A stretch of 64,000 bases of DNA from Polyangium mundeleinium (GTDB taxonomy: Bacteria; Myxococcota_A; Polyangia; Polyangiales; Polyangiaceae). The notes beneath the pieces are model-generated. The model made no database searches. It was not told where the DNA came from and was given only the letters and a program-made list of their open reading frames with translations. The stretch spans positions 1,779,711 through 1,843,710 of the forward strand of contig NZ_JAQNDO010000001.1 of assembly GCF_028369105.1 (NCBI RefSeq), given 5' to 3'. Below are positions 1-55,292 of the stretch, piece by piece (position 1 is the first letter of the stretch; each line of letters starts with the position of its first letter). A program made the position numbers and the translations under genes.

Positions 1-3605
<3,605 letters not shown>

Positions 3606-9166: not shown

Positions 9167-12100
9167 ATGCGCGCCATGCGACCGCGCCCCCCGACGGGTT
9201 TGTCCCCCACGCTCTTCGTGCTCCTCGCGCTCGTGGCCCTCGGCTGCGGCGACGGAGGTGATGGCATTCCGCCGCGCCCGACCGATGCCGGGACCGACGC
9301 CACCGAGACCGATGCCTCCGAGATCGACGCGGGGTGTCCGCCGGGATCGTACCCCGACGGCGGCGCGTGCGTGATCGACGCGAGCTGCAAGGACAACCCC
9401 TGCGGCGAACACGGGACGTGCGACGATTCGAGTGGATCGGCCGTCTGCACGTGCGAGAAGGGCTGGGGCGGCGCGACGTGCACGTCGTGTGACGCCGCGG
9501 GCGGCTACCACGACGACGGCAGCGGAGGTTGCACGACGGACCCGTGCGTGCCGGATCCGTGCATGTCGGCCGATCGCATCTGCGATGGAAGCTCGGGCAG
9601 CGCGCAGTGTGTTTGCAAGCCCGGCACGCACGACGAGGGCGGCGTGTGCGTCGAGGACAAGACATGCCTGCCGACGACGTGCAGCGGTCACGGGAGCTGC
9701 GACGACAGGGGCGGCAAGGCCGTGTGCATGTGCGACGTCGGATGGAGCGGGAGCGCATGCGACGCGTGTGACGACGCAGGGGGGTATCACAGCGATGGAA
9801 ACGGCGGCTGCACGACGGACCCGTGTCTGCCGAATCCCTGCGTGGCCCCGCACGCGAGCGTGTGCACGGTCGAAGGGGGATCCACGGTCTGCGGCTGCGA
9901 TCCCGGGTATCACGACGTGAACGGCGCTTGCGTGATCGATGAGGTTTGCACGCCGTCGACGTGCTCGGGCCATGGAGCGTGCGTGGTCGAAGGCGGCCAC
10001 GTGGTCTGCACGTGTGACGCCGGCTTCGCCGGGGATTCGTGTGATACGTGCGACGTGGCGGGCGGGTATCACGACGACGGGAGCGGCGGCTGCACGACGG
10101 ACCCGTGCCTGCCGAACCCCTGCGACATGCCGAACAAGACGGTCTGCGCGGGACAAGGCGCGTCGTACGTGTGCTCGTGTGATGCGGGGTATCACGACGA
10201 CGGGAGCGGCGGGTGCACCGACGATCCCTGCACGCCGAACGTCTGCCTCGTGATGAACCAGGCCTGCCAGGTCGTGGGCGGGATGCCGCAGTGCTACACG
10301 CCCGATTGCGACGATCAGAACCCGTGCACGGTCGATACGGTCGTGGGCGGGAGCTGCGAGCACACGCCGCGCCCCAACGGGACGATGTGCCAGACGTCGC
10401 TCTGCATCGTGGGGGAGGCATGCCAGGCGGGCACCTGCGCGGGTGGCAGCCCGCGGGTGTGCGACGACGGCAATGCGTGCACGGACGACACGTGTGATCT
10501 CGCGGTGGGGTGTGTCGCGACGAACGACAACACGAACGTGCCGGACGACGGGATCGCGTGCACGATCGACAAGTGCGCGGGCGGCCTCGCGTCGCACACG
10601 ACGAGCAACGCGGCTTGTGACGACGGGGCGTGGTGCACGGGCGCGGAGGTCTGCGCGCCGCTCCAGGCGGGCGCGGACGCGGAGGGGTGCGTGCACGTGA
10701 ACGTGCCGCAGAAGCCCGTGAGCATCAGCCCGTGCGTGAGTTATGGCGCGTGCGACGAGGCGACGAAGTCGTTCCCGCCCGTGTTCGCGTCGCCGGGGAG
10801 CACCTGCAACGACGGCATCCCGTGCACGAGCGGCGACGTCTGCGACGCGCAGGGCGCTTGCAAGGGGACGGCCTCGATCGGTTGTGATGGCGGGGCTTGC
10901 GCGACCACGCACCCCGGCACGGGCGACGTGAACATCCCGGTCGGCGTGGTGAGCGGGACGATCACGCTCGGAGGCGCGGCGGTGCCCGCGACGAATACCG
11001 AGTCGGACGGCGCGGAGATCTACCTCGTGGCGAAGGACACGAAGGCAGCGCATTACATCGGCGGTTATAGCTACCAGTTCCAGTCGGGGGGCGTGTATTC
11101 GCTGCTCCCGAACGCCTACGGCGGCAAGGTGGTCGCGGGCGTGTACGACGTGCTCTACCGGCGGGGCTGGGGGTCTGCCGGGAATACGGTGACGCGTACG
11201 CAGCCGGCAGCAACGCACGTGAATGGCTATCGGATCCTCGCGACGGGCGTGGTCATCGGCACGGGGGAGAGCAAGCTGGACGTGAACATTCCGGTGGCGA
11301 GCGTGAGCGGTACGATCACGCTCGGAGGCGCGGCGGTGCCCGCGACGAATACCGAGTCGGACGGCGCGGAGATCTACCTCGTGGCGAAGGACACGAAGGC
11401 AGCGCATTACATCGGCGGTTATAGCTACCAGTTCCAGTCGGGGGGCGTGTATTCGCTGCTCCCGAACGCCTACGGCGGCAAGGTGCTCGCGGGCACGTAT
11501 GACGTGCTGTATCGGCGGGGCTGGGGGTCTGCCGGGAACACGGTGACGCGTACGCAGCTCGCGGCGACGCACGTGAATGGCTACCGGATTCTGGCGACGG
11601 ACGTGACGCTCTCGGCAGGGTCGAACACGCTGAACGTGGACATCCCGGTGGCGAGCGTGAGCGGTACGATCACGCTCGGGGGCGCGGCGGTTCCGGCGAC
11701 GAACACGGAGTCGGACGGCGCGGAGATTTACCTCGTGGCGAAGGACACGAAGGCCGCGCATTACATCGGCGGTTATAGCTACCAGTTCCAGTCGGGGGGC
11801 GTGTATTCGCTGCTCCCGAATGCCTACGGCGGCAAGGTGCCTGCGGGTACGTATGACGTGCTCTATCGGCGGGGCTGGGGGTCTGCCGGGAACACGGTGA
11901 CGCGTACGCAGCTCGCGGCGCCGCATGTGAATGGGTATCGGATTCTGGCGACGGATGTGACGCTTTCGGCAGGGTCGAACACGCTGGACGTGGACCTCCC
12001 GGTGGCGAGCGTGAGCGGTACGATCACGCTCGGGGGCGCGGCGGTGCCGGCGACGAACACGGAGTCGACCGGCGCGGAGATCTACCTCGTGGCGAAGGAC

Positions 12101-13033
12101 ACGAAGGCTGCGCATTACATCGGCGGTTATAGCTACCAGTTCCAGTCGGGGGGCGTGTATTCGCTGCTCCCGAACGCCTACGGCGGCAAGGTGCCTGCGG
12201 GTACGTACGACGTGCTGTATCGGCGGGGCTGGGGGTCTGCCGGGAACACGGTGACGCGTACGCAGCTCGCGGCGACGCACGTGAATGGGTATCGGATCCT
12301 GGCGACGGACGTGACGCTTTCGGCAGGGTCGAACACGCTGAACGTGGACCTCCCGGTGGCGAGCGTGAGCGGTACGATCACGCTCGGGGGGGCGGCGGTG
12401 CCGGCGACGAACACGGAGTCGACCGGCGCGGAGATCTACCTCGTGGCGAAGGACACGAAGGCCGCGCATTACATCGGCGGTTATAGCTACCAGTTCCAGT
12501 CGGGGAGCGTGTATTCGCTGCTCCCGAACGCCTACGGCGGCAAGGTGCCTGCGGGTACGTACGACGTGTTGTATCGGCGGGGCTGGGGGTCGAGCGGGAA
12601 CACGGTGACGCGTACGCTTCTGGCGGGGACGCACGTCAATGGCTATCGGATTCTGGCGACGGACGTGACGCTCTCGGCAGGGTCGAACACGCTGGACGTA
12701 GACCTCCCGGTGGCGAGCGTGAGCGGTACGATCACGCTCGGGGGCGCGGCGGTGCCGGCGACGAACACGGAGTCGACCGGCGCGGAGATCTACCTCGTGG
12801 CGCAGGACACGGCGGCCGCGCATTACATCGGGGGCTACAGCTACCAGTTCCAGTCGGGGGGCGTGTATTCGCTGCTCCCGAACGCCTATGGCGGCAAGGT
12901 GCCTTCGGGGACGTATGACGTGCTCTACCGGCGGGGCTGGGGGTCGAGCGGGAACACGGTGACGCGTACGCTCGTGACGGCCGCGCACGTCAATGGGTAC
13001 CGGCTTCTGGATCGATGCATGACGACGCCTTGA
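9167..13033 (+). CDS. Large secreted lipoprotein of 1288 aa: EGF-like/Myxococcus cysteine-rich repeats followed by six tandem ~118-aa beta-sandwich-like repeats (adhesin-like)
   Basis: Lipoprotein signal LLALVALGCGDG. About six copies of C..NPCGEHGTCDD....C.C..GW.G..C..CD.AGGYHDDGSGGCTTDPC. Further CDDGNACTDDTCD-type repeats (Myxococcus cysteine-rich repeat). Then six copies of NIPVASVSGTITLGGAAVPATNTES.GAEIYLVAKDTKAAHYIGGYSYQFQSGGVYSLLPNAYGGKV..GTYDVLYRRGWGS.GNTVTRT. Confidence 0.85.
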   Translation: MRAMRPRPPTGLSPTLFVLLALVALGCGDGGDGIPPRPTDAGTDATETDASEIDAGCPPGSYPDGGACVIDASCKDNPCGEHGTCDDSSGSAVCTCEKGWGGATCTSCDAAGGYHDDGSGGCTTDPCVPDPCMSADRICDGSSGSAQCVCKPGTHDEGGVCVEDKTCLPTTCSGHGSCDDRGGKAVCMCDVGWSGSACDACDDAGGYHSDGNGGCTTDPCLPNPCVAPHASVCTVEGGSTVCGCDPGYHDVNGACVIDEVCTPSTCSGHGACVVEGGHVVCTCDAGFAGDSCDTCDVAGGYHDDGSGGCTTDPCLPNPCDMPNKTVCAGQGASYVCSCDAGYHDDGSGGCTDDPCTPNVCLVMNQACQVVGGMPQCYTPDCDDQNPCTVDTVVGGSCEHTPRPNGTMCQTSLCIVGEACQAGTCAGGSPRVCDDGNACTDDTCDLAVGCVATNDNTNVPDDGIACTIDKCAGGLASHTTSNAACDDGAWCTGAEVCAPLQAGADAEGCVHVNVPQKPVSISPCVSYGACDEATKSFPPVFASPGSTCNDGIPCTSGDVCDAQGACKGTASIGCDGGACATTHPGTGDVNIPVGVVSGTITLGGAAVPATNTESDGAEIYLVAKDTKAAHYIGGYSYQFQSGGVYSLLPNAYGGKVVAGVYDVLYRRGWGSAGNTVTRTQPAATHVNGYRILATGVVIGTGESKLDVNIPVASVSGTITLGGAAVPATNTESDGAEIYLVAKDTKAAHYIGGYSYQFQSGGVYSLLPNAYGGKVLAGTYDVLYRRGWGSAGNTVTRTQLAATHVNGYRILATDVTLSAGSNTLNVDIPVASVSGTITLGGAAVPATNTESDGAEIYLVAKDTKAAHYIGGYSYQFQSGGVYSLLPNAYGGKVPAGTYDVLYRRGWGSAGNTVTRTQLAAPHVNGYRILATDVTLSAGSNTLDVDLPVASVSGTITLGGAAVPATNTESTGAEIYLVAKDTKAAHYIGGYSYQFQSGGVYSLLPNAYGGKVPAGTYDVLYRRGWGSAGNTVTRTQLAATHVNGYRILATDVTLSAGSNTLNVDLPVASVSGTITLGGAAVPATNTESTGAEIYLVAKDTKAAHYIGGYSYQFQSGSVYSLLPNAYGGKVPAGTYDVLYRRGWGSSGNTVTRTLLAGTHVNGYRILATDVTLSAGSNTLDVDLPVASVSGTITLGGAAVPATNTESTGAEIYLVAQDTAAAHYIGGYSYQFQSGGVYSLLPNAYGGKVPSGTYDVLYRRGWGSSGNTVTRTLVTAAHVNGYRLLDRCMTTP
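10930..13033 (+). repeat. In-frame tandem array of six 354-bp near-identical repeats inside the lipoprotein gene
   Basis: Unit starts at 10930, 11284, 11638, 11992, 12346 and 12700; the last copy is cut by the stop codon. The identical 237-nt antisense ORFs 11863..12060 and 12178..12414 are a by-product. Confidence 0.85.
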
Positions 13034-32830: not shown

Positions 32831-34120
32831 ATGATCGAGATCACCTTTCTCGGGCAGCTCGTCGCGACGATCGCGGGCGCATTGGCGTTCGTCTCGTTGC
32901 TCCTCGTGCTCGCCGCGAGCGCTTACGTGCTCGGCGCGGCCGCGAAGGGGCTCGAAGGGCTCGCCGCGCCGCGCGGCGTGCTCCCCGAGGTCGTCGCGGG
33001 CCGCGCGCGGATCCTGCGATCGATCGCCTTGATCCTCGGCGTGCTCACGTTTGCCTTCGTGATCTCGACGTCGACCATCGGAGGCACGCTCGCGACGATC
33101 ACGTTCGCCGCGGCGCTCGGCATGCTCGCGCGGAGCGGGACGCTCGCGCTCTCGATGCTGGCGATGCGGACGGCCGCGAAGCTCGAAGGCGGGCGCGTCG
33201 TGCAGAAGAACGCGCTCTCGGCGGCACGGGCCGCGCAGACGGCGGCGCTCGAAGCGAAGGCGAAGAAGCGGCTCGCGGGCGAGGACCTGCGCGGGGAGCT
33301 ACGCGCGGCGGACGCGGCGCTGACGAAGCTGCGCGAGGCGCTCGGGACGCTCGTGGATACACGCGCGGCGCTCGGGCAGAAGCTCCAGAAGGGGAACGGC
33401 CCAGGAGGGGAGCCGCGGCTCGTGCCGGAGATCGCGCGCATGCGAGACGAGCTCACGTTGCGGATCGAGCTCGGGGAACGTGTGCTCACGGCGGCCGAGG
33501 CCGCGGCGTTCCGGCTCGCATGCGCGCTGCCGATCAAGAAGCTCGTGCGCAGGCGGCCCGCGGAGATCGCGGGGCTCGATCCGGCGGCGCCGGGCGATCC
33601 GGCGGCGCGGCTCGCCGCGGCCACGGCGGCGATCGACGGCTACCTCGTCGCGCTCGCGGAGGCGCGCGCCGAGCTCGAAGAGGTCACGACGCGGCGGCCG
33701 ACGCTCCCGCCACCTGCCCCGGACGCGGCCGACGACGACGACGACGACAGGCGCGCGAAGGACCCGCTGGCCCACGCGCGGGCGGATCTCGACGTGATCG
33801 AGGCGGCGTATCGATCGCTGCGGGAGCGCGCGGAGCTGACGCGGCTCGGACTCCAGGCGCGCAAGGGCCTGGCCGAGGTGGCGAGCGCGGCGGGCGTGGT
33901 GTCGAAGCAGGCGCAGGCGTTTGGCCTCGACGAGCGGGAGTTTGGCCTCTTGCTGGACGACGTCGCGCGGGCCGAGCGGGTGTCCTCGATCGAGCCGCCG
34001 GGGCGCGACGAGGACCTGCGGGTGCTGGTGGAGGCGCTCTCCCGGGGGACGAGCGCGCTCGACCAGGATGACCGGGCGTCGCTGGGTGGGGTGGTCGCGG
34101 CGCTGCGGTCGATCGGGTGA
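32831..34120 (+). CDS. Membrane protein with a long coiled-coil/acidic region, function unknown
   Basis: Four N-terminal TM helices, then Ala/Arg/Glu-rich helical sequence and a DDDDDD stretch. RBS-like ggagagg before the ATG. Confidence 0.6.
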   Translation: MIEITFLGQLVATIAGALAFVSLLLVLAASAYVLGAAAKGLEGLAAPRGVLPEVVAGRARILRSIALILGVLTFAFVISTSTIGGTLATITFAAALGMLARSGTLALSMLAMRTAAKLEGGRVVQKNALSAARAAQTAALEAKAKKRLAGEDLRGELRAADAALTKLREALGTLVDTRAALGQKLQKGNGPGGEPRLVPEIARMRDELTLRIELGERVLTAAEAAAFRLACALPIKKLVRRRPAEIAGLDPAAPGDPAARLAAATAAIDGYLVALAEARAELEEVTTRRPTLPPPAPDAADDDDDDRRAKDPLAHARADLDVIEAAYRSLRERAELTRLGLQARKGLAEVASAAGVVSKQAQAFGLDEREFGLLLDDVARAERVSSIEPPGRDEDLRVLVEALSRGTSALDQDDRASLGGVVAALRSIG

Positions 34121-34185
34121 GCCGGACCGTCGCGTCGGCATTTCTTCTTCTCCTTGTCCCGGCCTTGCACAAGAAAGGACGATTC

Positions 34186-37100
34186 ATGGCCCTTCGAACG
34201 TCTCGTCGGCTCCGCTCGTTCACGCAACGCACGTCCCTCCTCCTCGTCGCGGGCATGCTCACCGCATGCGCCGAGTCGCCCACGCCGGGCGTTTCGCCGG
34301 CGCCGCCCGCTCCGCAGGCGGGGGCTCGGCTCTCCGCGCCCCTCGACCTCGACGCGACGGCGCGTGACGCGCGGCGGGCGTTCCGCGCCGAGGGGCCCCG
34401 ATGGGTCGGCGCCGGGCCGACCCACCACGTTTCGGCCACGGTAGAGGGCTTCGACGTCGCCCCCCTCGCGCCCTCGCCTTCGGCCGGCGGGGCGGTGCGC
34501 GCGGGGGCGCCCCTGCGCATCGAGAAGGCGCGCATCACGCGGGGCGAGCGTGAGCTCTTGCGCGGCGCGCCCACGGGCCGCATCGAACGAGGCCACCACC
34601 TGGCCATCGAGGCCGGCGACGTCACCGAGCACATCGACAATCGCGAGGACGGCGTGGAGCTCTCTTATGGGTTTCCGCGCGCGCCCGAGGGCGAGGGGGA
34701 TCTCTCCGTCGTGCTCGCGACCAGCGGCGAGCGGTACGTCGGCGCGACGGCGCGTGGCTTGCATTACGTGGACCCCGCGACCGGGCTTGGTGTGCGGTTC
34801 GGGCGCGCGACGTGGATCGACGCGCGCGGGACGAGGACCCATGTCGAGGCGCACGTCGAGGACACGCGGATCGTCCTGCGGGTCCCCGACCGCGTGCTCG
34901 CCACGTCCGTGTATCCGGCCGTGCTCGACCCGATCCTGAGCGCGGAGATCGCGGTGGACGAACCTGTCAATGGCCTCGGCACGGGCATCCACAGGGATCC
35001 GGCCGTCGCGTGGAATGGCAGCCGGTATCTCGTGGCCTGGGAGGTGAGCCGGTTCCTCGATCCCGTCTCGGAGCGGGCAATCTACGCCGCGCGTGTCGAC
35101 CCGCAGGGCGACGTGCTCGACCTGTCCGGCATTCCGCTGGCGGACGCGGGGGAACATCCGTCGCTCGCGAGCGACGGGAATGGGTATTTCCTCGCGTACG
35201 ACATCGTCTACCCCGCGCCCGCGGGTCTGATGGGCTTGTACGGCCAGCGCCTCGACGCGAATGGTCAGCCGGTCGGCGCGCCGATCTCGCTGTCGCCGTC
35301 CGGCACCGATGGCCACGTGGTGTTCGATGGGACGAACTATCTCGTCGCCTGGAGCGGCCTGAACGAAGACACGGGATATTATGCGCGCGTCACGCCGTCC
35401 GGGCAGGTCCTCGATCCGAATGGCGTCGTGTTCGGCGCAGGGACGGTCCGGGCCTTGCGCGTCGCCTCGAATGGCGCGGGGGCCCTGCTCGCGTGGGACA
35501 ACCCGGGGTTTTCGCAGGGCCACCTCGCGCGGGTCGATGCCCAGGGCGTCTTGCTCGATCCTGTCAGTATTCCGATCCTGCCCGACCCGCTCCTCTCGCA
35601 GCATCAGCCCACGCCCCTGTGGATGGGATCGTCGTATTTCGTGGGGTACATCCAGTATACCGACGAGGAGCGGACGGTCGTCGCGGCGCGCTTCGACCCG
35701 GAGCAGGGTGCTTTCCTCGACGCCGCGCCGATTCCCCTCATCGATCCCACCGGCAAGGAGATCACGCAGCTCGACGTGACGACCGATGGCACGAACGCCG
35801 TCGTGACCTGGAGTGATTACCTGCCCGATCTGGTCGCGCATCCGCTCCGGCGGGCGCGCGTCTCGCCCCAGGGGGCCGTGCTCGATCATAACGGCGTCGT
35901 GTATGCGCCGCGCGGGGCCGTGGCGCGGGGCGCTTCGAATGGCGCGCACGCGCTCCACGTGTGGCGCAATGCCTACTTCGACAAGTTCTTCCCGGGCGCC
36001 TTCACGGTGGAGGCCCTTCGTTTCGACGCGAGTGGGCAGGCGCTCGACGCCGCGCCGATCGTGGTGTCGCGCGGGGCGAGCGAGCAACGCGCGCCCGCGG
36101 TGGCGTTCGATGGCCAGAACTTCGTCGTGGCCTGGTCGGACGGGCGTGATTTGGTCGCGAAGCAGGAGACGAACCTGTATGCGACGCGCATTGATCCCTC
36201 GGGGATGGTCGTCGACGCGAGCGCCATTCAGGTGAACAATGGGGCGTACGACGTGATCCGCCCGGAGGCCGTGTTCGACGGGACGAATACGCTCTTCTCG
36301 TGGTTTGAGTGCAACATCTATTACGACGGCACGGAGTGCGGGTTGCGCGCGGGTCGGCTCAGCCCACAAGGCGTGGTGCTCGACACGCCTGCGACGGAGA
36401 TCCAGGGCTTCGACGGGGTCGGCGACCGCGTGGCGCTCTCGGTGGGCGGCGGCGCGACGCTCGTGGCCGCGAGCAGTTATGACGAGGTTGTGGCGACGAC
36501 GATCGACGCGGCGGGGCCCTCGGGCACGCTCACGTCCTTCGCGCCGGACGCCCTCCCCGCGGCGCTCAGCGCGTCATTCGACGGCGTGCATCACCTCGTC
36601 GTATGGCAAAACGCAGCAAAGCAGATCGTCGGCAAGCGCTTCACGCCGCAGGGCAGCGCCGTCGATGCGACGCCGATCGTCCTTTCGGGGACGCTCGCCG
36701 CGCCGGCCGGGGCGTCCGTGTCCTTTGATGGGACGAACCATGTCGTCGTGTGGGTGGACGGGGAGGGCGTCTTCGGGGTGCGGGTGAGCCCCGCGGGGGC
36801 CGTGCTCGATGCCGCGGCGGTGTCGCTCGCGAGCGCGCCGGGATGCGCGCACGTGGGGCTCGCGGGGCGCGGCGTGGTCGCCGACGGGGGTCGCACCGTG
36901 ATCGGGGTTCGCACGTGCGGGCAGGGCGCGACGGACGTTCATGCGCTCGTGGTCGACGGCATGCTTGCGCCGATCACGACGCTCGCGATCACGAGCGATG
37001 CTCACCCCGAGGGCCTCCCGACGCTTGCTTCGACGAATGCGGGCAAGGTGCTGGTGGCCTATCCGCAATTCCATACGGAAGCGCCCTTCGGGACGTCGCG

Positions 37101-37536
37101 GGTCCGGGCGAGGGTCGTGGATTTCACGGCCTGCACGATGGACGCCCAGTGCAATGGGGGCGTGTGCACCGGGGGGATCTGCGTGGGCGAAGGGAATGGG
37201 GCCGGTGGAATGGGCGGCGCTGGTGGAATGGGCGGCGCTGGTGGAAGTGGTGGGGCCGGTGGAATGGGCGGCTCCGGTGGCATGGGCGGCGCGGGTCCGG
37301 GCTCGGGCGGCTCCGGTGGCATGGGCGGCGCTGGTCCGGGCTCGGGCGGCTCCGGTGGCATGGGCGGCGCTGGTCCGGGCTCGGGAGGTTCGGGCGGCTC
37401 GACCGTACCGGGAGGTGGGGCCGAATGTGACTGCCGCGCCGCGGGCGATGGCGGGTCGTCGGGGATGCCGCTCGCGGCGGCGGCCCTCGGGCTCGTCGCG
37501 GCGAGGACGCGGCGGGGCCGCCGTCAGGGGGCGTAG
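34186..37536 (+). CDS. Large MYXO-CTERM-anchored surface lipoprotein with repeated x-FDGTN-x-LVAW motifs and a Gly-rich (GGMGGAGG) linker
   Basis: The probable start is ATG 34186 (MALRTSRRLRSFTQRTSLLLVAGMLTAC, lipobox). At least six repeats of VFDGTNYLVAWS/AFDGQNFVVAWSD/SFDGTNHVVVWVDG type. C-terminus ...GGGAECDCRAAGDGGSSGMPLAAAALGLVAARTRRGRR matches a MYXO-CTERM sorting signal. Confidence 0.85.
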   Translation: MALRTSRRLRSFTQRTSLLLVAGMLTACAESPTPGVSPAPPAPQAGARLSAPLDLDATARDARRAFRAEGPRWVGAGPTHHVSATVEGFDVAPLAPSPSAGGAVRAGAPLRIEKARITRGERELLRGAPTGRIERGHHLAIEAGDVTEHIDNREDGVELSYGFPRAPEGEGDLSVVLATSGERYVGATARGLHYVDPATGLGVRFGRATWIDARGTRTHVEAHVEDTRIVLRVPDRVLATSVYPAVLDPILSAEIAVDEPVNGLGTGIHRDPAVAWNGSRYLVAWEVSRFLDPVSERAIYAARVDPQGDVLDLSGIPLADAGEHPSLASDGNGYFLAYDIVYPAPAGLMGLYGQRLDANGQPVGAPISLSPSGTDGHVVFDGTNYLVAWSGLNEDTGYYARVTPSGQVLDPNGVVFGAGTVRALRVASNGAGALLAWDNPGFSQGHLARVDAQGVLLDPVSIPILPDPLLSQHQPTPLWMGSSYFVGYIQYTDEERTVVAARFDPEQGAFLDAAPIPLIDPTGKEITQLDVTTDGTNAVVTWSDYLPDLVAHPLRRARVSPQGAVLDHNGVVYAPRGAVARGASNGAHALHVWRNAYFDKFFPGAFTVEALRFDASGQALDAAPIVVSRGASEQRAPAVAFDGQNFVVAWSDGRDLVAKQETNLYATRIDPSGMVVDASAIQVNNGAYDVIRPEAVFDGTNTLFSWFECNIYYDGTECGLRAGRLSPQGVVLDTPATEIQGFDGVGDRVALSVGGGATLVAASSYDEVVATTIDAAGPSGTLTSFAPDALPAALSASFDGVHHLVVWQNAAKQIVGKRFTPQGSAVDATPIVLSGTLAAPAGASVSFDGTNHVVVWVDGEGVFGVRVSPAGAVLDAAAVSLASAPGCAHVGLAGRGVVADGGRTVIGVRTCGQGATDVHALVVDGMLAPITTLAITSDAHPEGLPTLASTNAGKVLVAYPQFHTEAPFGTSRVRARVVDFTACTMDAQCNGGVCTGGICVGEGNGAGGMGGAGGMGGAGGSGGAGGMGGSGGMGGAGPGSGGSGGMGGAGPGSGGSGGMGGAGPGSGGSGGSTVPGGGAECDCRAAGDGGSSGMPLAAAALGLVAARTRRGRRQGA

Positions 37537-38010
37537 GCCCTGACCGCAGGAGAGTCGCGACCGTCTCGGAGGTGGGTCGACGAGGCTTGCGGGAGGGTCG
37601 TGACCGTCTCGGAGGCTTGTCGACGAGGCCTGCGGGAGGGTCGTGACCGTCTCGGAGGCTTGTCGACGAGGCCTGCGGGAGGGTCGTGACCATCTCGGCG
37701 GCTGGTCGACGAGGGTTGCGGGAGGGTCGTGACCGTCTCGGAGGCTTGTCGACGAGGCCTGCGGGAGGGTCGTGACCATCTCGGCAGCTTGTCGACGGGG
37801 GTTGCGGGAGGGGCGTGACCACCTCGGCGGCTGGTCGAAGATGCCTGCGGGAGGGGCGTGACCATCTCGGAGGCTTGTCGAAGATGCCTGCGGGAGGGTC
37901 GTGACCACCTCGGCGGCTGGTCGACGAGGGTTGCGGGAGGGTCGTGACCACCTCGGCGGCTGGTCGACGAGGGTTGCGGGAGGGTCGTGACCACCTCGGC
38001 GGCTTGTATC
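37536..38010. repeat. Non-coding tandem array of a 43-bp unit, about 11 copies
   Basis: gtcgtgacc recurs at 37597, 37640, 37683, 37726 and onward with period 43. The unit is gaccgtctcggaggcttgtcgacgaggcctgcgggagggtcgt with point variants. It lies between the stop at 37536 and the start at 38077. Confidence 0.9.
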
Positions 38011-38076
38011 GGGGGAGGCCCGCCATGGTCTGCGCCGCTGTTGCAAACAAGGCACCACCTGACGTAGGAGCCCCGC

Positions 38077-38388
38077 GTGTCCCAGTTCCACGGCGGCTTC
38101 TTCGTGCGGTCGGTCGACGCGTCAGGCCCCGATCGTTTCCTGCCGGCCCCGCACGCCCAGCCCCCTGGGGCGATCGAGGTCCCGCAGCTCGTGCCGGTGT
38201 CCGCGAAGGCGCTGGCGACGCCGCCGACGTCCGACAGAAAGGTCAAGCGGACCCTCGCGGTGCCGAGCCGCGTGCTCGACGAGGTTCGCGTGTTCTCCCA
38301 GGCGACGGACCGCAGCTTGTCGTGGTCGTTGGAGACGGCGTACATCGCCGCGCGCGAGCGGCTGCACGCCGCGACGGCGCGCAGCTAA
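38077..38388 (+). CDS. Small protein of 103 aa, possible ribbon-helix-helix (CopG/ParG-like) DNA-binding protein
   Basis: GTG start preceded by aggag. The C-terminal segment KRTLAVPSRVLDEVRVFSQATDRSLSWSLETAYIAARERL resembles an RHH motif. Codon bias is acceptable. Confidence 0.4.
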   Translation: MSQFHGGFFVRSVDASGPDRFLPAPHAQPPGAIEVPQLVPVSAKALATPPTSDRKVKRTLAVPSRVLDEVRVFSQATDRSLSWSLETAYIAARERLHAATARS

Positions 38389-38470
38389 AGCCATGACCCT
38401 CGGAGGCAGGTCGACGAGCCCTGCGACACGGCTCTAGACATCGCGCCGCACCTGCGACAGGTACGCAGGG

Positions 38471-39346
38471 ATGGGGGATAAGTCCGATCCGAACGGAACC
38501 GACGTGCTTCACGCCGAGGTGGAGCGTCTGCGTACGCGGCTCGCCGCAGCCGAGACGGCGCTCGCCGAAGCGCGCACCGCCGAGGCGGAGCTGCGGGCCA
38601 TGTTCACGGCCATGACGGACGTGGTGATCGTCATGAACCGGGAGGGGCGGTACCTCAAGATCGCGCCCACCGGCGCGGATCTCCTCTACAAGCCGAGCGG
38701 CGATCTCCTCGGCAAGACGCTGCACGAGGTCATGCCGCCGGCGATGGCCGATTTCCTCCTGTTCCACGTCCACGCGTCGCTGGAGCGGAAGGGGCTCGTC
38801 CACCTCGAATACAGCATGCCGGCCGCCGGCCGGGAGATCTTCTTCAGCACCAACGTCACGCCGATGTCCGACGACATGGTGATCGTCGTCGCGCGCGACG
38901 TCACCGACCGCAAACGCGCCGAGGAGGCGCTCGCCGAGGGGATACGCAGGCAAGCGGTGATCGACGCGCAGGAGGCGGCGCTCTCCGCGCTGTCGACGCC
39001 GCTCATCCCCGTCACCGACGAGATCGTGGTGATGCCGCTCATCGGCGTGCTCGACTCGCAGCGCGTGCAGCAGGTCATGGATACGCTGCTCCGAGGCGTC
39101 ACCGAGCGGCGCGCGCGCACGGCCATCCTCGACATCACGGGGATCTCGGTCGTCGACACGGAGGTGGCCGACGCGCTCGTCCGGGCCGCCCGCGCAGTGC
39201 AGCTCCTCGGCGCGAAGGTGGTGCTCACCGGCGTCCGGCGCGACGTCGCGCAGACGCTGGTCGAGATCCAGGCCGACCTCGGCGGCATCGTCACGCGCAG
39301 CACGGTCCAGAGCGGGATCGCCTTCGCGATGGCCCGCGCCGGCTGA
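38471..39346 (+). CDS. PAS–STAS domain protein (RsbR/anti-sigma-antagonist-like)
   Basis: PAS-like N-terminal region (AMFTAMTDVVIVMNREGRYL...). C-terminal STAS (IVVMPLIGVLDSQRVQQVMDTLL...AILDITGISVVDTEVADALV...GAKVVLTGVR). Confidence 0.8.
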   Translation: MGDKSDPNGTDVLHAEVERLRTRLAAAETALAEARTAEAELRAMFTAMTDVVIVMNREGRYLKIAPTGADLLYKPSGDLLGKTLHEVMPPAMADFLLFHVHASLERKGLVHLEYSMPAAGREIFFSTNVTPMSDDMVIVVARDVTDRKRAEEALAEGIRRQAVIDAQEAALSALSTPLIPVTDEIVVMPLIGVLDSQRVQQVMDTLLRGVTERRARTAILDITGISVVDTEVADALVRAARAVQLLGAKVVLTGVRRDVAQTLVEIQADLGGIVTRSTVQSGIAFAMARAG

Positions 39347-39395
39347 TCGCCCCTGTTCCCGCCCTCGCCTCCCTCGTGCTATCCCCGCCCCCGCG

Positions 39396-40145
39396 ATGCG
39401 CCGCAGGACCCCCCATGCCATCCAGGTCGAGCTCGCGCAGAAGCGGCTGCTCGCCCGGCTCGCCAGCCTCGATCACGCCGCGATCGTGCGCGCGCTCGGC
39501 CCCTTCCTCACGCCCGAGCGCAAGGCCCGCTTCGACGCGGTCTTCGCCTCCCGTCTCGGCTCCGTGACCGTGCTCATGGACGCGCCCTACGACCCGCACA
39601 ACGGCGCCGCTGTCCTCCGGTCGTGTGACGCGTTCGGCGTCCAGCGCCTGCACGTCGTCGAGCGCGGCGGCATCTCGTTCCTCGCGGCCCGCGAGGTCGC
39701 CCGCGGCTCCGAGCAATGGGTCCACGTGCGCACGTACCCCACGAGCGCCGCGTCCCTCGCCGCCCTCGCCGCGTCCGGCCACGAGCTCATCGCGACCCAC
39801 CCGCAAGGCGAGCTCGCGCCCGAGGATCTTCGTTCGATCCCGAAGGTCTGCCTCGTCCTCGGCAACGAGCGCGACGGCATCCACGAGGAGCTCGTCGCCG
39901 CCTGCAAGCGGAGCGTCCGCGTCCCGATGCGAGGGTTCGTGGAGAGCCTGAACGTGAGCGTGACGGGCGCGATCCTGCTCCAGCACGCGACGTCGGGCCG
40001 GCAAGGGGATCTCTCCGAGGACGAGCTCCGTGCGCTGCATGCCCGCGCGATGATCCTGACGATCGATCACGCGGCGGAGATTCTCCTCGCGAACGGGATT
40101 TCGCTCGGGGAGGACGCGCTCGGGGTCGAGGGGGCGGCGGGGTAG
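39396..40145 (+). CDS. SpoU/TrmH-family RNA 2'-O-methyltransferase
   Basis: SPOUT motifs: [53 protein letters not shown]. Confidence 0.85.
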
Positions 40146-49241: not shown

Positions 49242-49823
49242 ATGGCGGAGCCAATGCAAAACGACCTCGGCGGCGAGCCGCCGCGGGCCGAGCGTCCCGA
49301 GGAACCTTCGCGCGTGGACGGCAGCCGTCGCGGCGCGTTGAAGGTGCTCGTCGCGCTGGGCGGCGCGGCCTACGCGGGCGCGATCGTGGTCCCGGCCGTG
49401 ACCATGCTGGCCCCATCGTCTGAAGGCGGCGCAGGCGCGGCGCGGTGGATGCGGGTTTGTCGTCTCGCCGAGCTGACCGAGGGTGAGCCGCGGCGGGTCG
49501 TGGTCGTCGGCGACGAGCGCGACGCGTACACGGTGACGAAGGATCAGCTCCTCGGCTCGATCTGGGTGACGAAGAAGGGCGAGAGCGTGACGGCGCTCAG
49601 CGCGGTTTGTCCGCACCTCGGCTGCTCGATCGATCTGAACGGCGACAAGAAGAGCTTCTCGTGTCCCTGCCACACGTCGAAGTTCTCGCTCGCGGGCGCG
49701 GCGGAGGCAGGGCCGAGCCCGCGCGGGATGGATCCGCTCGTGGTGCGCGTCGTGGACGGGCACGTCGAGGTGGACTTCAAGCTCTTCCGCCAGGGGATCG
49801 CGGAGCGAAAGGAGGTCGGGTGA
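49242..49823 (+). CDS. Rieske [2Fe-2S] iron-sulfur subunit with a Tat signal
   Basis: Twin-arginine motif SRRGALKVLV; Rieske boxes CPHLGC and CPCHTS. Start ATG at 49242 within ORF 49074..49823. Confidence 0.85.
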   Translation: MAEPMQNDLGGEPPRAERPEEPSRVDGSRRGALKVLVALGGAAYAGAIVVPAVTMLAPSSEGGAGAARWMRVCRLAELTEGEPRRVVVVGDERDAYTVTKDQLLGSIWVTKKGESVTALSAVCPHLGCSIDLNGDKKSFSCPCHTSKFSLAGAAEAGPSPRGMDPLVVRVVDGHVEVDFKLFRQGIAERKEVG

Positions 49824-51571
49824 AGCTCGGCGATTGGCTCGACGAACGGACGGGCTACCGGGCGATCTCCCGGAAGTTCGTGGAAGCGACCGTCCCCGGC
49901 GGAGCGCGCTTCGCGTACGCGTGGGGCGCGGCGCTCGGGATCGTGCTGCTGCTGGAAGCGGTGACGGGCGTGCTGCTCATGACCGTGTATTCGCCGAGCG
50001 CGACGACGGCGTGGGCGAGCGTGGCGTACCTGCAGCAGAAGGTGCCGGGGGGCTGGATCGTGCGCGGGCTGCATCAGTTCGGCGCGCAGGCGGCGATCGT
50101 GCTCGCGGTGATCCACGTGGGGTACGCGATCGCGCGCGGGGCGTACCGCAAGCCGCGGGAGCTGACGTACTGGCTTTCGCTCGCGATGGTGGGGCTCGTC
50201 GTGGTCACGGCGCTGACGGGCAATCCGCTGCGCTGGGATCAACGCGGCTTCTGGGGTCTGCGTGTGGAGACGGGGATCATCGGGACGGTGCCCGTGGTCG
50301 GCGGCGTCTTGCAGCAGCTCTTGCTCGGCGGAGGCACGCCGGGGCACATGACGCTGTCGCGTCTGTACACGCTGCACACGGTGGTGTTGCCGTTCCTGCT
50401 CGGCGCGATCGCGGCGAAGCATCTGTGGCTGTCGCGCAAGCACGGGCCGGCGCTCGCGACGCCTGCGGACGCGGTGAAGTCGGATCGGTACTTCCCGACG
50501 CAAGCGGCGCGCGACGTGATCGTGGCGGTGGCCGTGCTCGGCGTGATCGGGGCGCTGACGTGGATGCGGCACGGCGCGCCGCTCGACGCGCCGGCGGATC
50601 CGACGAGCGACTACCCGGCGCGGCCGGAGTGGTACTTCCTCGCGCTCTACGAGATGCGAAAGCCCTTCCCGGGCAAGCTGGAGTTGATCGCGACGGTGGT
50701 GATCCCAGGGCTCGTGGCGGGGTACCTGGTGCTCTTGCCGCTGCTCGACAAGAAGGCGGATCGCGGCGTGATGAAGCGGCTGCCGCTGCTCGCGCCGGTG
50801 GGGTTGTTCGGGGTGGCGGCAGGCGTGCTCACGTTCGCGTCGATGCGCACGGACGCAGCCGACGCGGAGTTCGGGAAGGCCGTGGCGAAGGCCGAGGCGC
50901 AAGGAACGAAGGCGCTGGCGTTGGCGCAGGAAGGCGTGCCGCCGGAGGGCGCGCTGGCGATGCTGCGCAACCACCCGGAGACGCGCCGCGTTGCGCTGTT
51001 CGAGCAGCACTGCGCGAGCTGCCATCGCATGGGGGATCTGGGGCCGCCGAAGGACAAGGACACGGCGCCGGATCTGACGGGCTTCGGCACGAAGGCGTGG
51101 GCGAAGCGGGTGATGGAGGAGCCGGATCACGATGCGATGTTCGGCAAGACCGCGTTCAAGGGCGAGATGCCGAGCATGACGAAGCCGCCCGCGGATCCCG
51201 AGGCAGCGAAGGCGTTCACGGCGATGGCGCCGGCGGACCTCGACGCGATCGCGGACTTCCTCGCGGTGCAAGCGCAAGGGAAGAAGGGCGAGGGGTTGCC
51301 GGGCGAGAAGCTCGTGAGCCAGCGATGCACGAGCTGCCATCGGTTCGACGGCAAGACGGACGACGAGGACTCGCTCGCGCCGGAGCTGCGCGGCTGGGCC
51401 TCGGTGCCTTGGATCCTCGCGCAGATCGATGATCCCGGCAGCGGCGCGACCTACCCGAAGGGCGCGATGGATCCGAAGCTCGAAGGGCACATGCCCGCGT
51501 TCAAGGACAAGCTGTCCGAGAAGGATCGGGCGCTGCTCGCGAAGTTCGTGCAGGAGCAGGCGGGCAAGTAG
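49820..51571 (+). CDS. Cytochrome b fused to a C-terminal dihaem cytochrome c domain (bc-complex subunit)
   Basis: GTG start overlapping the Rieske stop (GTGA at 49820-49823). Cytochrome b signatures (haem-ligand His pattern in helices B and D, GDWLDERTG N-terminus). Two CxxCH motifs: CASCHRMGD and CTSCHRFDG. Confidence 0.85.
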   Translation: MKLGDWLDERTGYRAISRKFVEATVPGGARFAYAWGAALGIVLLLEAVTGVLLMTVYSPSATTAWASVAYLQQKVPGGWIVRGLHQFGAQAAIVLAVIHVGYAIARGAYRKPRELTYWLSLAMVGLVVVTALTGNPLRWDQRGFWGLRVETGIIGTVPVVGGVLQQLLLGGGTPGHMTLSRLYTLHTVVLPFLLGAIAAKHLWLSRKHGPALATPADAVKSDRYFPTQAARDVIVAVAVLGVIGALTWMRHGAPLDAPADPTSDYPARPEWYFLALYEMRKPFPGKLELIATVVIPGLVAGYLVLLPLLDKKADRGVMKRLPLLAPVGLFGVAAGVLTFASMRTDAADAEFGKAVAKAEAQGTKALALAQEGVPPEGALAMLRNHPETRRVALFEQHCASCHRMGDLGPPKDKDTAPDLTGFGTKAWAKRVMEEPDHDAMFGKTAFKGEMPSMTKPPADPEAAKAFTAMAPADLDAIADFLAVQAQGKKGEGLPGEKLVSQRCTSCHRFDGKTDDEDSLAPELRGWASVPWILAQIDDPGSGATYPKGAMDPKLEGHMPAFKDKLSEKDRALLAKFVQEQAGK

Positions 51572-51613: not shown

Positions 51614-51886
51614 TCGAGACCAGCCCCAAATGTGAACAGTCGCTCCGAAAAGGGAGCGAAAACGCCCCAAAGCGGGGTCGGAGCGGTCCACGTACGTTTT
51701 GGGGAGGCCCCAAATGTAGGTGGATGTGTCCGGGGTGCCGTTTGGGGAGGGCCCAAATGTAGGTGGGTGTGTCCGGAGTGCCGTTTGGGGAGGCCCCAAA
51801 GGGAGGTCGGCGCGGCCGGTGGGGTCGCTGGGGAGGCCCCAAAAGGAGGCCGGCGCGGCCCGAGGCGTCTTCGGGGAGGCCCCAAA
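51614..51886. repeat. Cluster of short palindromic elements: five or more copies of the hairpin core TTTGGGG-AGG-CCCCAAA plus a ~44-bp direct repeat
   Basis: Hairpin cores at 51697-51714, 51741-51757, 51784-51800, 51828-51844 and 51870-51886. A related CCCCAAAGCGGGG sits at 51665-51677. GCCCCAAATGT(A/G)GG recurs at about 51625, 51707 and 51751. All lie in the gap between the convergent cyt b/c and kinase genes. Confidence 0.7.

Positions 51887-51935: not shown

Positions 51936-55292
<3,357 letters not shown>

Follow-up and report, generated by a model that had tools for sequence, protein, structure and literature searches.

A probably ancestral 43-bp minisatellite in a cargo-variable interval of Polyangium, with a possible role as RNA hairpins

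Our analysis concerns a tandem array of a 43-bp unit in a 64,000-nucleotide stretch of the Polyangium mundeleinium genome; this whole stretch is referred to below as the window. The array lies between a gene for a MYXO-CTERM protein and ORF103, a small open reading frame (ORF) of 103 amino acids (aa), and had been described in an earlier note as a noncoding repeat of about 11 copies that could act as an iterated operator for a ribbon-helix-helix (RHH) protein encoded next to it. The genes around it form a conserved frame, in which a 429-aa gene is followed by a variable interval, a PAS/STAS gene, a SpoU methylase gene, and a protein kinase gene; the MYXO-CTERM gene is a further neighbor of the array. 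Judged from sequence, comparison with related genomes establishes the array as an ancestral, locus-specific, noncoding element of a cargo-variable interval that is independent of ORF103. The features at the locus and their counterparts in related species are listed in Table 1.

The upstream MYXO-CTERM gene probably starts at the ATG at 34186 and has a lipoprotein-like signal. The last 45 aa of its product match TIGR03901 with 24.2 bits, against a cutoff of 20, and P. mundeleinium and P. fumosum are the only species with the gene at the syntenic locus. A separate, coding tandem repeat at 37201..37385 (period of 39 and 3.1 copies at 98%; related periods of 18-21 also occur) corresponds to a Gly-rich GGMGGAGPGSGGS linker just ahead of the MYXO-CTERM tail.

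Table 1. Features of the array locus in P. mundeleinium (window coordinates) and of the syntenic loci in other Polyangium species (coordinates of each fetched locus)
Feature	Locus	Coordinates	Strand	Details	Evidence
Left-flank conserved gene	Window	32831..34120	+	429 aa, no family match	Synteny
Upstream MYXO-CTERM gene	Window	34117..37536	+	1139 aa as listed	ORF list, TIGR03901, synteny
43-bp tandem array	Window	37549..38007	+		Tandem Repeats Finder, pattern scan, unit listing, composition
Conserved 22-nt core (example)	Window	37590..37611	+	CGGGAGGGT-cgtg-ACCGTCTCG	Single-hairpin folds, pairing scan
ORF103	Window	38077..38388	+	103 aa, GTG start	ORF list, profile, fold and codon evidence
Solitary degenerate unit	Window	38394..38425	+	TGACC-CTCGGAGGCAGGTCGACGAGCCCTGCG	nhmmer with unit HMM, E=1e-4; iterated HMM, E=1.8e-5
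Conserved block	Window	38430..38470	+	GGCTCTAGACATCGCGCCGCACCTGCGACAGGTACGCAGG	Sequence comparison
Right-flank PAS + STAS gene	Window	38471..39346	+		Pfam, synteny
SpoU methylase gene	Window	39396..40145		Next after PAS/STAS gene	Pfam, synteny
P. fumosum array	L001	6811..7187		8.7 copies
P. fumosum HEC-01-like module	L001	7210..9047	-		PADLOC
Polyangium sp. y55x31 array	L004	6669..7118		About 10 copies; 87-bp dimeric higher order
Polyangium sp. y55x31 HEC-01-like module	L004	7142..8907	-		PADLOC
Polyangium sp. 6x1 array	L011	8668..8979		7.2 copies

Tandem Repeats Finder recovered the array with a period of 43 and 10.7 copies (89% matches, 0% indels, score 645), in line with the copy number given in the earlier note, and also called a higher-order period of 129 bp. 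The 459 bp are made up of 10 full units and a 29-nucleotide (nt) partial last unit. A 27-nt core pattern, allowing up to three mismatches, has 11 in-register matches, all on one strand, whereas 100 shuffles gave an expectation of 0. The bounds proposed before also held: the first unit starts 9-12 nt past the stop of the upstream ORF at 37536, and a gap of 69 nt separates the array end from the ORF103 GTG at 38077. The plus strand is G-rich, with 205 G against 115 C (GC skew of +0.24 to +0.30), and the motif GTCGAC is found in 8 full units, with GTCGAA in two. One element had been overlooked. A solitary degenerate unit, detected with a hidden Markov model (HMM) of the unit, sits 5 nt beyond the ORF103 stop, and ORF103 is therefore bracketed by unit sequence.

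The possibility that such an array is an assembly artefact, which had been raised at the outset together with a check by long reads, is unlikely. The genome of strain RJM3 was assembled with HGAP from PacBio reads (PMC10435759), whose length a 459-bp array falls well inside, and related arrays are carried by three independent assemblies.

The array could in principle encode a protein on the minus strand, since all three minus frames are free of stops across the array in the window and in the arrays of P. fumosum and Polyangium sp. 6x1. We regard this as next to impossible. The 43-bp period is no multiple of 3, and the lengths of the arrays in the four species that carry one (459, 377, 450, and 312 bp) shift the frame; one minus frame of the Polyangium sp. 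y55x31 array contains 4 stops, and the ORFs in question run antisense through a real gene. The GC contents at the three codon positions (GC1/2/3) are flat in the minus frames of the array, at 0.70/0.69/0.70, compared with 0.69/0.55/0.94 in ORF103 and a GC3 of 0.85-0.94 in the real neighboring genes. With no codon signature in the minus frames, the long ORFs antisense to the array are to be dismissed as spurious; the plus frames hold 3-4 stops each. The description of the array as noncoding, and of its long antisense ORF as a by-product of the repeat, was thereby borne out.

Syntenic loci of related genomes were fetched with the SpoU methylase gene as the anchor. A related 43-bp array occupies the same site in three further species, P. 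fumosum, Polyangium sp. y55x31, and Polyangium sp. 6x1, which provides the comparison of copy numbers that had been suggested for the array, here made between species and on the sequences as assembled: 10.7 in P. mundeleinium and 8.7, about 10, and 7.2 in the others, respectively, with the last two values coming from assemblies that are probably short-read. At the same site, P. jinanense has a single partial unit and Polyangium sp. 15x6 an unrelated AT-rich spacer. Distances calculated from the SpoU and 429-aa genes divide these species into two subclades, one consisting of P. mundeleinium and P. fumosum and the other of 15x6, P. jinanense, y55x31, and 6x1. The array is found in both subclades and therefore would have been present in their common ancestor, to be lost or collapsed twice later on. 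Its position relative to the gene upstream is constant, in that it starts 0-13 nt after a stop codon in two different contexts: directly past the 429-aa gene in 6x1 and y55x31, and past the MYXO-CTERM gene where that gene is present. In 6x1 no cargo gene accompanies the array, which has the 429-aa gene on one side and the PAS/STAS gene on the other.

Within a species, units share 87-94% identity, compared with 68-81% between species. Units at the edges are closer to the ancestral form; TCGCG, for example, is common to the first unit of the P. mundeleinium array and that of the P. fumosum array. Higher-order periods of two or three units are seen in the arrays. This is, as far as sequences can tell, a classic picture of concerted evolution by slippage and unequal exchange, and the slipped-strand expansion suggested earlier fits an array that behaves as a minisatellite of this type.

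In each unit, an imperfect inverted repeat of 22 nt (CGGGAGGGT-cgtg-ACCGTCTCG) forms a conserved core, and the remaining 21 nt are a fast-changing spacer. The core has the consensus GGGAGGGTCG-N3-CC-N-TCTCGGAG, in which the 20 specified positions are identical between the consensus units of all four array-bearing species, whose 4-fold degenerate sites are 73-91% identical. Between the sister species, 6-8 of the 21 spacer positions differ, while the 4-fold sites of these species are 86-91% identical; by this comparison of sequences, the spacer half is evolving faster than synonymous sites. GTCGAC, which had been taken as the center of a plausible dimer-binding site, falls in the fast spacer half and is not conserved, P. 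fumosum units having TGGGAC or GTGGAT instead.

The interval in which the array lies differs in content between species. Its right edge is marked by the block at 38430..38470, which P. fumosum and 6x1 share and P. jinanense retains in part. This block is promoter-like by position only and has no match to the sigma-70 consensus; its end at the PAS/STAS ATG points to a promoter whose leader is very short or absent. In both P. fumosum and y55x31, a minus-strand gene pair lies at the same junction, between the array and the PAS/STAS gene. In PADLOC the pair matches HEC-01, a candidate defense system, on the basis of an AAA_21/AAA_15 ATPase (E=2e-88) and a DUF4276-like partner (E=2e-32). With this HEC-01-like pair at a common junction, the interval behaves as a variable cargo/defense hotspot. 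ORF103 is part of the interval in P. mundeleinium only. Outside the interval, about 8 kb of extra DNA in P. jinanense (L003 1752..10001) splits the PAS/STAS gene from the SpoU gene, the two being adjacent in the other species.

Variable cargo of this kind could mean that the units are attC-like recombination sites that capture gene cassettes: the cargo differs by species, with the MYXO-CTERM gene in two, the HEC-01 pair in two, and ORF103 in one, and ORF103 has unit sequence on both sides. However, only this one of the three cargo types is bracketed by units. No unit-like sequence was found at the far side of the HEC-01 pair or at the junction of the 429-aa and MYXO-CTERM genes, and no integrase or recombinase is encoded among the genes examined beside the array, so that we consider capture by the units very unlikely. 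A "partial unit" past the stop of the 429-aa gene in the window, which looked plausible by eye, was not significant.

ORF103 has an AGGAG at 38066..38070, six nt before its GTG, and a GC3 typical of the real genes around it. Its product is 100% identical to a hypothetical protein of P. mundeleinium encoded on a contig of 13,235,919 bp. As a single sequence, it matches Myxococcus xanthus CdbA (PDB 6sbw) over residues 55-98 with an E value of 5.6e-4, and a profile built from 20 of its relatives matches CdbA (6sbw) at E=1.9e-13, with weak matches to the RHH proteins PutA and CopG. It scores 26 bits against TIGR04563, below the curated cutoff of 65, and therefore contains a related domain rather than being a member of the curated family. 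In an AlphaFold2 model, residues 55-100 are predicted with per-residue confidence (pLDDT) values of 79-97 and form an extended segment followed by helices at 64-76 and 81-100; Foldseek placed CdbA first (probability 0.99, root mean square deviation of 1.8-2.0 Å), followed by Arc, PutA, and CopG, although its E values are weak (0.06 or higher), the domain being very small. By profile and predicted fold, ORF103 does encode a CdbA-type RHH domain in its C-terminal part (residues ~55-100), as the earlier assignment of an RHH-like product had anticipated. CdbA itself binds c-di-GMP, forms tetramers, and recognizes direct-repeat sites (PMC7156744).

A HMMER search identified 29 relatives of ORF103, most of them 320-358 aa long and sharing its N terminus, MSEFHGGF. 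ORF103 aligns only to the first ~15 and the last ~85 residues of these proteins, and the same is seen at the DNA level with the closest relative; it therefore derives from such a protein by an in-frame internal deletion and retains only the C-terminal RHH module. The full-length myxobacterial family of ~320-358 aa appears to carry two RHH-like modules, of which the C-terminal one is CdbA-type, and its members adjoin housekeeping genes, for example, the ATP synthase operon and a bactofilin gene in L083. No ORF103 homologue was found beside the arrays of P. fumosum, y55x31, and 6x1 in fetched flanks of up to 10 kb, and no array of the 43-bp type was found near ORF103 relatives in four other genomic contexts (L081-L085 and L093). 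On this comparison, the array would be the older element, and ORF103 appears to have been inserted into it late and in P. mundeleinium only.

These observations bear on the proposal that the RHH protein encoded next to the array uses it as an iterated operator or a centromere-like site. Repeat arrays are known targets of RHH proteins (ParR, ParG, and omega, for example), and this general precedent, together with the CdbA-type domain of ORF103, an array 69 bp upstream of its start, and a stray unit just downstream of its stop, speaks for the proposal. Synteny nevertheless does not support it. Three species have the array and no ORF103 homologue in the flanks fetched, the relatives of ORF103 in their four contexts have no array, and ORF103 is itself an internal-deletion derivative unique to P. 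mundeleinium. Among the neighbors of the array there is no gene for a partition NTPase (ParA or ParM), the unit lacks a sub-repeat of 10-11 bp, and GTCGAC, the supposed dimer site, is missing from P. fumosum units. We thus see very little chance that the array is an operator of ORF103. A match of the unit to the M. xanthus CdbA site was also considered and rejected. That site reads roughly ..TGTGTGCGCATCTGT.., an approximation taken from the primers used for electrophoretic mobility shift assays in a supplement (PMC7156744), and nothing in the unit resembles it.

The conserved core of the unit may form an RNA hairpin on the plus strand. The plus-strand RNA of the core is predicted to form a stem-loop with 5 + 3 pairs around a G.G mismatch at about -11 kcal/mol, compared with about -4 for the reverse complement; across unit types, the plus-strand value is -8.5 to -11.4 kcal/mol in 7 of 8, and the reverse complement gives -1.2 to -4.9. 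In the register of the core, 93% of the cells of an alignment of 26 distinct units from the 4 species are compatible with pairing, against 37-60% in slid registers. Changes within the core are mostly one-sided yet preserve pairing, mainly through G.U wobbles (U-A to U-G and C-G to U-G), and the fixed core changes of P. fumosum (A to G opposite U and C to U opposite G) likewise retain wobble pairs. When whole arrays were folded and compared with shuffles, the z scores of the plus-strand RNA were -8.9, -6.6, -4.6, and -5.8 in the four species, whereas those of the minus strand were -2.9, +3.5, -1.3, and -2.0.

The same inverted repeat may be read as DNA, in which 7 of 9 positions of the two arms are complementary. 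The array would then be a series of double-stranded sites, each 9-4-9 inverted repeat binding one dimer of a protein other than ORF103, either a nucleoid-associated protein (for example, a CdbA-family protein of full length from another locus) or a regulator of the PAS/STAS promoter. The spacing is suitable, one core every 43 bp being about 4 x 10.75, or four helical turns, and about 55 bp separate the array end from the promoter-like block downstream in 6x1. However, the array lies at varying distances from the PAS/STAS gene (about 0.1, 0.46, and 2 kb), the strand bias in G and C has no obvious role at a symmetric dimer site, and the fixed changes in P. fumosum weaken the DNA symmetry while keeping the wobble pairs of the RNA. 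Binding of such a protein is, in our view, an unlikely basis for the array.

Our preferred explanation has two parts: an ancestral minisatellite that is not an operator of ORF103, which is highly probable, and a function of the array through RNA hairpins, which we advance tentatively. To the explanation as a whole we attach a probability of roughly 55%, a figure that is a compromise between the two. The minisatellite would have been inherited from the common ancestor of a small Polyangium clade and would turn over by replication slippage and unequal exchange, one to three units at a time. Such turnover would keep units alike inside a species while species drift apart, and would account for the range of about 7 to about 11 copies in the arrays as assembled. 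The interval between the 429-aa and PAS/STAS genes would take up different cargo genes in each species, and the truncated CdbA-type RHH gene ORF103 would have been inserted into the array in P. mundeleinium only. Because of the strand asymmetry, the conserved core with its wobbles, and the position just past a stop codon, any function of the array would be expected on the sense transcript, as a row of G.U-containing stem-loops in the 3' untranslated region (UTR) of the upstream gene. There, the stem-loops may act as a barrier or insulator at the 3' end against exonucleases or read-through, in the manner of the repetitive extragenic palindromic (REP) sequences and bacterial interspersed mosaic elements (BIMEs) of other bacteria.

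Several observations weigh against this explanation, most of them against its RNA part. When the pair span was limited to 40 nt or less, the plus-strand z scores fell to -3.3, -0.4, -0.7, and -2.3. RNAalifold returned only a shifted 5-pair hairpin of -2.8 kcal/mol with no covariation, and two-sided changes are found at one core pair only, within y55x31 units that may be misaligned. A hairpin in a fixed register around GTCGAC in the spacer was 72% paired, no better than shuffles, and was rejected. Scans around the array detected no sigma-70 promoter or terminator consensus, and covariance models from Rfam gave no match at E of 1 or less on either strand of 36500..39500. The idea that the array stands in for a canonical terminator likewise found no support, since consensus scans were negative also at the locus (L002) of an array-less species. 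The array is dispensable, because two of the six close species do without it. The copy numbers of the y55x31 and 6x1 arrays come from contigs with SPAdes-style names, probably built from short reads, in which the arrays may be collapsed. Finally, the single-locus status of the unit is established over the 64-kb window and the fetched loci, and a low-copy dispersed family may exist elsewhere in these genomes.

Searches for further copies agreed within their scope. An nhmmer search of the 64-kb window with the unit HMM found no copy other than the array and the solitary unit, and none was present off the syntenic site in about 1.2 Mb of fetched related loci, which include roughly 75 kb from close Polyangium. 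The pattern CTCGGNGGCNNGTCGACGAGNNNTGCG had 0 matches in a genome collection; this pattern is specific to the P. mundeleinium unit, and neither genome scan yielded a locus from that species. In metagenome and viral collections, the cross-species core gave single chance matches only and no arrays, and blastn against plasmid and phage collections gave no match. A literature search on myxobacterial intergenic minisatellites turned up nothing relevant.

A neutral or self-propagating minisatellite, the core of which persists by promoting slippage or expansion or simply owing to the short time elapsed, is about equally likely as a function of the array in RNA, and both must be regarded as possibilities short of an even chance. 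Loss of the array in two of six close species, a spacer turnover in excess of that at synonymous sites, the lack of convincing covariation in the core, and the absence of further copies from the window, the related loci, and the metagenome, viral, plasmid, and phage collections would all be expected of neutral DNA. Against neutrality stand the 20 specified core positions that are unchanged in the four-species consensus even though 4-fold sites are only 73-91% identical, the consistent folding bias of the plus strand, and the fixed position after a stop codon in two gene contexts.

A more elaborate form of the RNA-hairpin explanation can be imagined, although we consider it unlikely. The array would be a multi-hairpin RNA module of 7-11 stem-loops flanked by GGA or GGAGG, placed in the 3' UTR of the respective upstream gene, and would serve as an insulator tuned by copy number, a decay barrier, or a protein sponge at the fixed edge of a cargo hotspot that bears defense genes. 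If true, this would be a regulatory RNA encoded by a minisatellite at a single locus, unlike the dispersed elements of the REP type.

The array is real but ordinary in kind, and its value is modest. It can be used as a variable-number tandem repeat (VNTR) marker for typing Polyangium isolates, and it offers a clean bacterial case of concerted evolution in which half of the unit is fixed and the other half changes faster than synonymous sites. It also serves as a warning that the small DNA-binding gene closest to a repeat array need not be its partner, since synteny identifies ORF103 as a late, truncated insertion. The interval between the 429-aa and PAS/STAS genes can be flagged as a variable cargo hotspot, with a candidate defense pair in two species. 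Should the RNA-hairpin part hold, the array would represent a 3'-UTR structure tunable by copy number in a myxobacterium.

The window contains other repeats. A second, unrelated array with a period of 43-44 bp lies at 51698..51886, between the convergent ORFs 49607..51571 (+) and 51936..55292 (-), and consists of five copies of the perfect hairpin TTTGGGGAGGCCCCAAA with semi-variable spacers of about 26 nt; further CCCCAAA motifs occur just upstream of it, and it was found in none of the fetched loci. In-frame tandem repeats at 3..1650 (period of 276 bp, about 5 copies, 82-83%) and at 10925..13010 (period of 354 bp, 5.9 copies, 93%) presumably encode repeated protein domains.

Among known systems, CRISPR (clustered regularly interspaced short palindromic repeats) arrays share with the Polyangium array the alternation, at a fixed period, of a partly palindromic segment of ~22 nt with a more variable one of ~21 nt. 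However, identity among the variable halves of an array is 70-100%, and the halves of different species are homologous, so that they are not acquired spacers; the 43-bp period is far shorter than any CRISPR period, and no match to Cas families was found among the neighboring proteins scanned. The earlier exclusion of a CRISPR array was thus correct. The arrays bound by RHH proteins (parC/ParR, parH/ParG, the omega heptads, and the CdbA sites; PMC7156744) also combine an RHH gene with a repeat array beside it, and the domain of ORF103 is CdbA-like. They differ in that array and RHH gene do not co-occur in the relatives of P. mundeleinium, in that no partition NTPase gene is present, and in that the 43-bp unit has no sub-repeat of one helical turn. 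With eukaryotic GC-rich minisatellites such as CEB1 and CEB25 (PMC3486850), the array shares a G-rich strand bias, higher-order blocks, concerted evolution, and a rearrangement-prone region; it differs in that the P. mundeleinium unit is devoid of canonical short-loop G-quadruplex motifs. A G-quadruplex was rejected for this unit, which has one GGGAGGG per 43 nt and therefore no short-loop motif.

Closer parallels come from hairpin units and from VNTRs. The boxB elements of pneumococcal BOX sequences and the enterobacterial REP sequences and BIMEs are intergenic hairpin units of about 35-45 nt, sometimes in tandem, that occur in 3' UTRs and can stabilize the upstream mRNA. The Polyangium unit is similar in size and hairpin potential, and the mechanism that we propose for it is the same. 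However, boxB and REP are dispersed in a hundred or more copies, and REPs have alternating orientations and an association with RAYT (REP-associated tyrosine) transposases, whereas all 11 units of the P. mundeleinium array have one orientation at the one locus where the unit was found, and the neighboring proteins scanned had no Pfam or NCBIfam match to a transposase. The mycobacterial interspersed repetitive units (MIRUs) of Mycobacterium tuberculosis are head-to-tail intergenic repeats of 40-100 bp that lie, in a GC-rich genome, between codirectional genes and near the stop of the upstream one, and that vary in copy number among relatives; they occupy about 40 loci per genome and contain short ORFs that overlap the flanking genes. 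The Polyangium unit is confined to one syntenic locus in the sequence available, and its plus frames contain stops, but its array is likewise head-to-tail, intergenic, near an upstream stop, and variable in copy number among relatives. With its noncoding direct repeats, a copy number that varies between species, and concerted evolution, the array fits a bacterial intergenic minisatellite or VNTR, and in kind it resembles the MIRU-type VNTRs and the tandem hairpin modules of boxB and REP.

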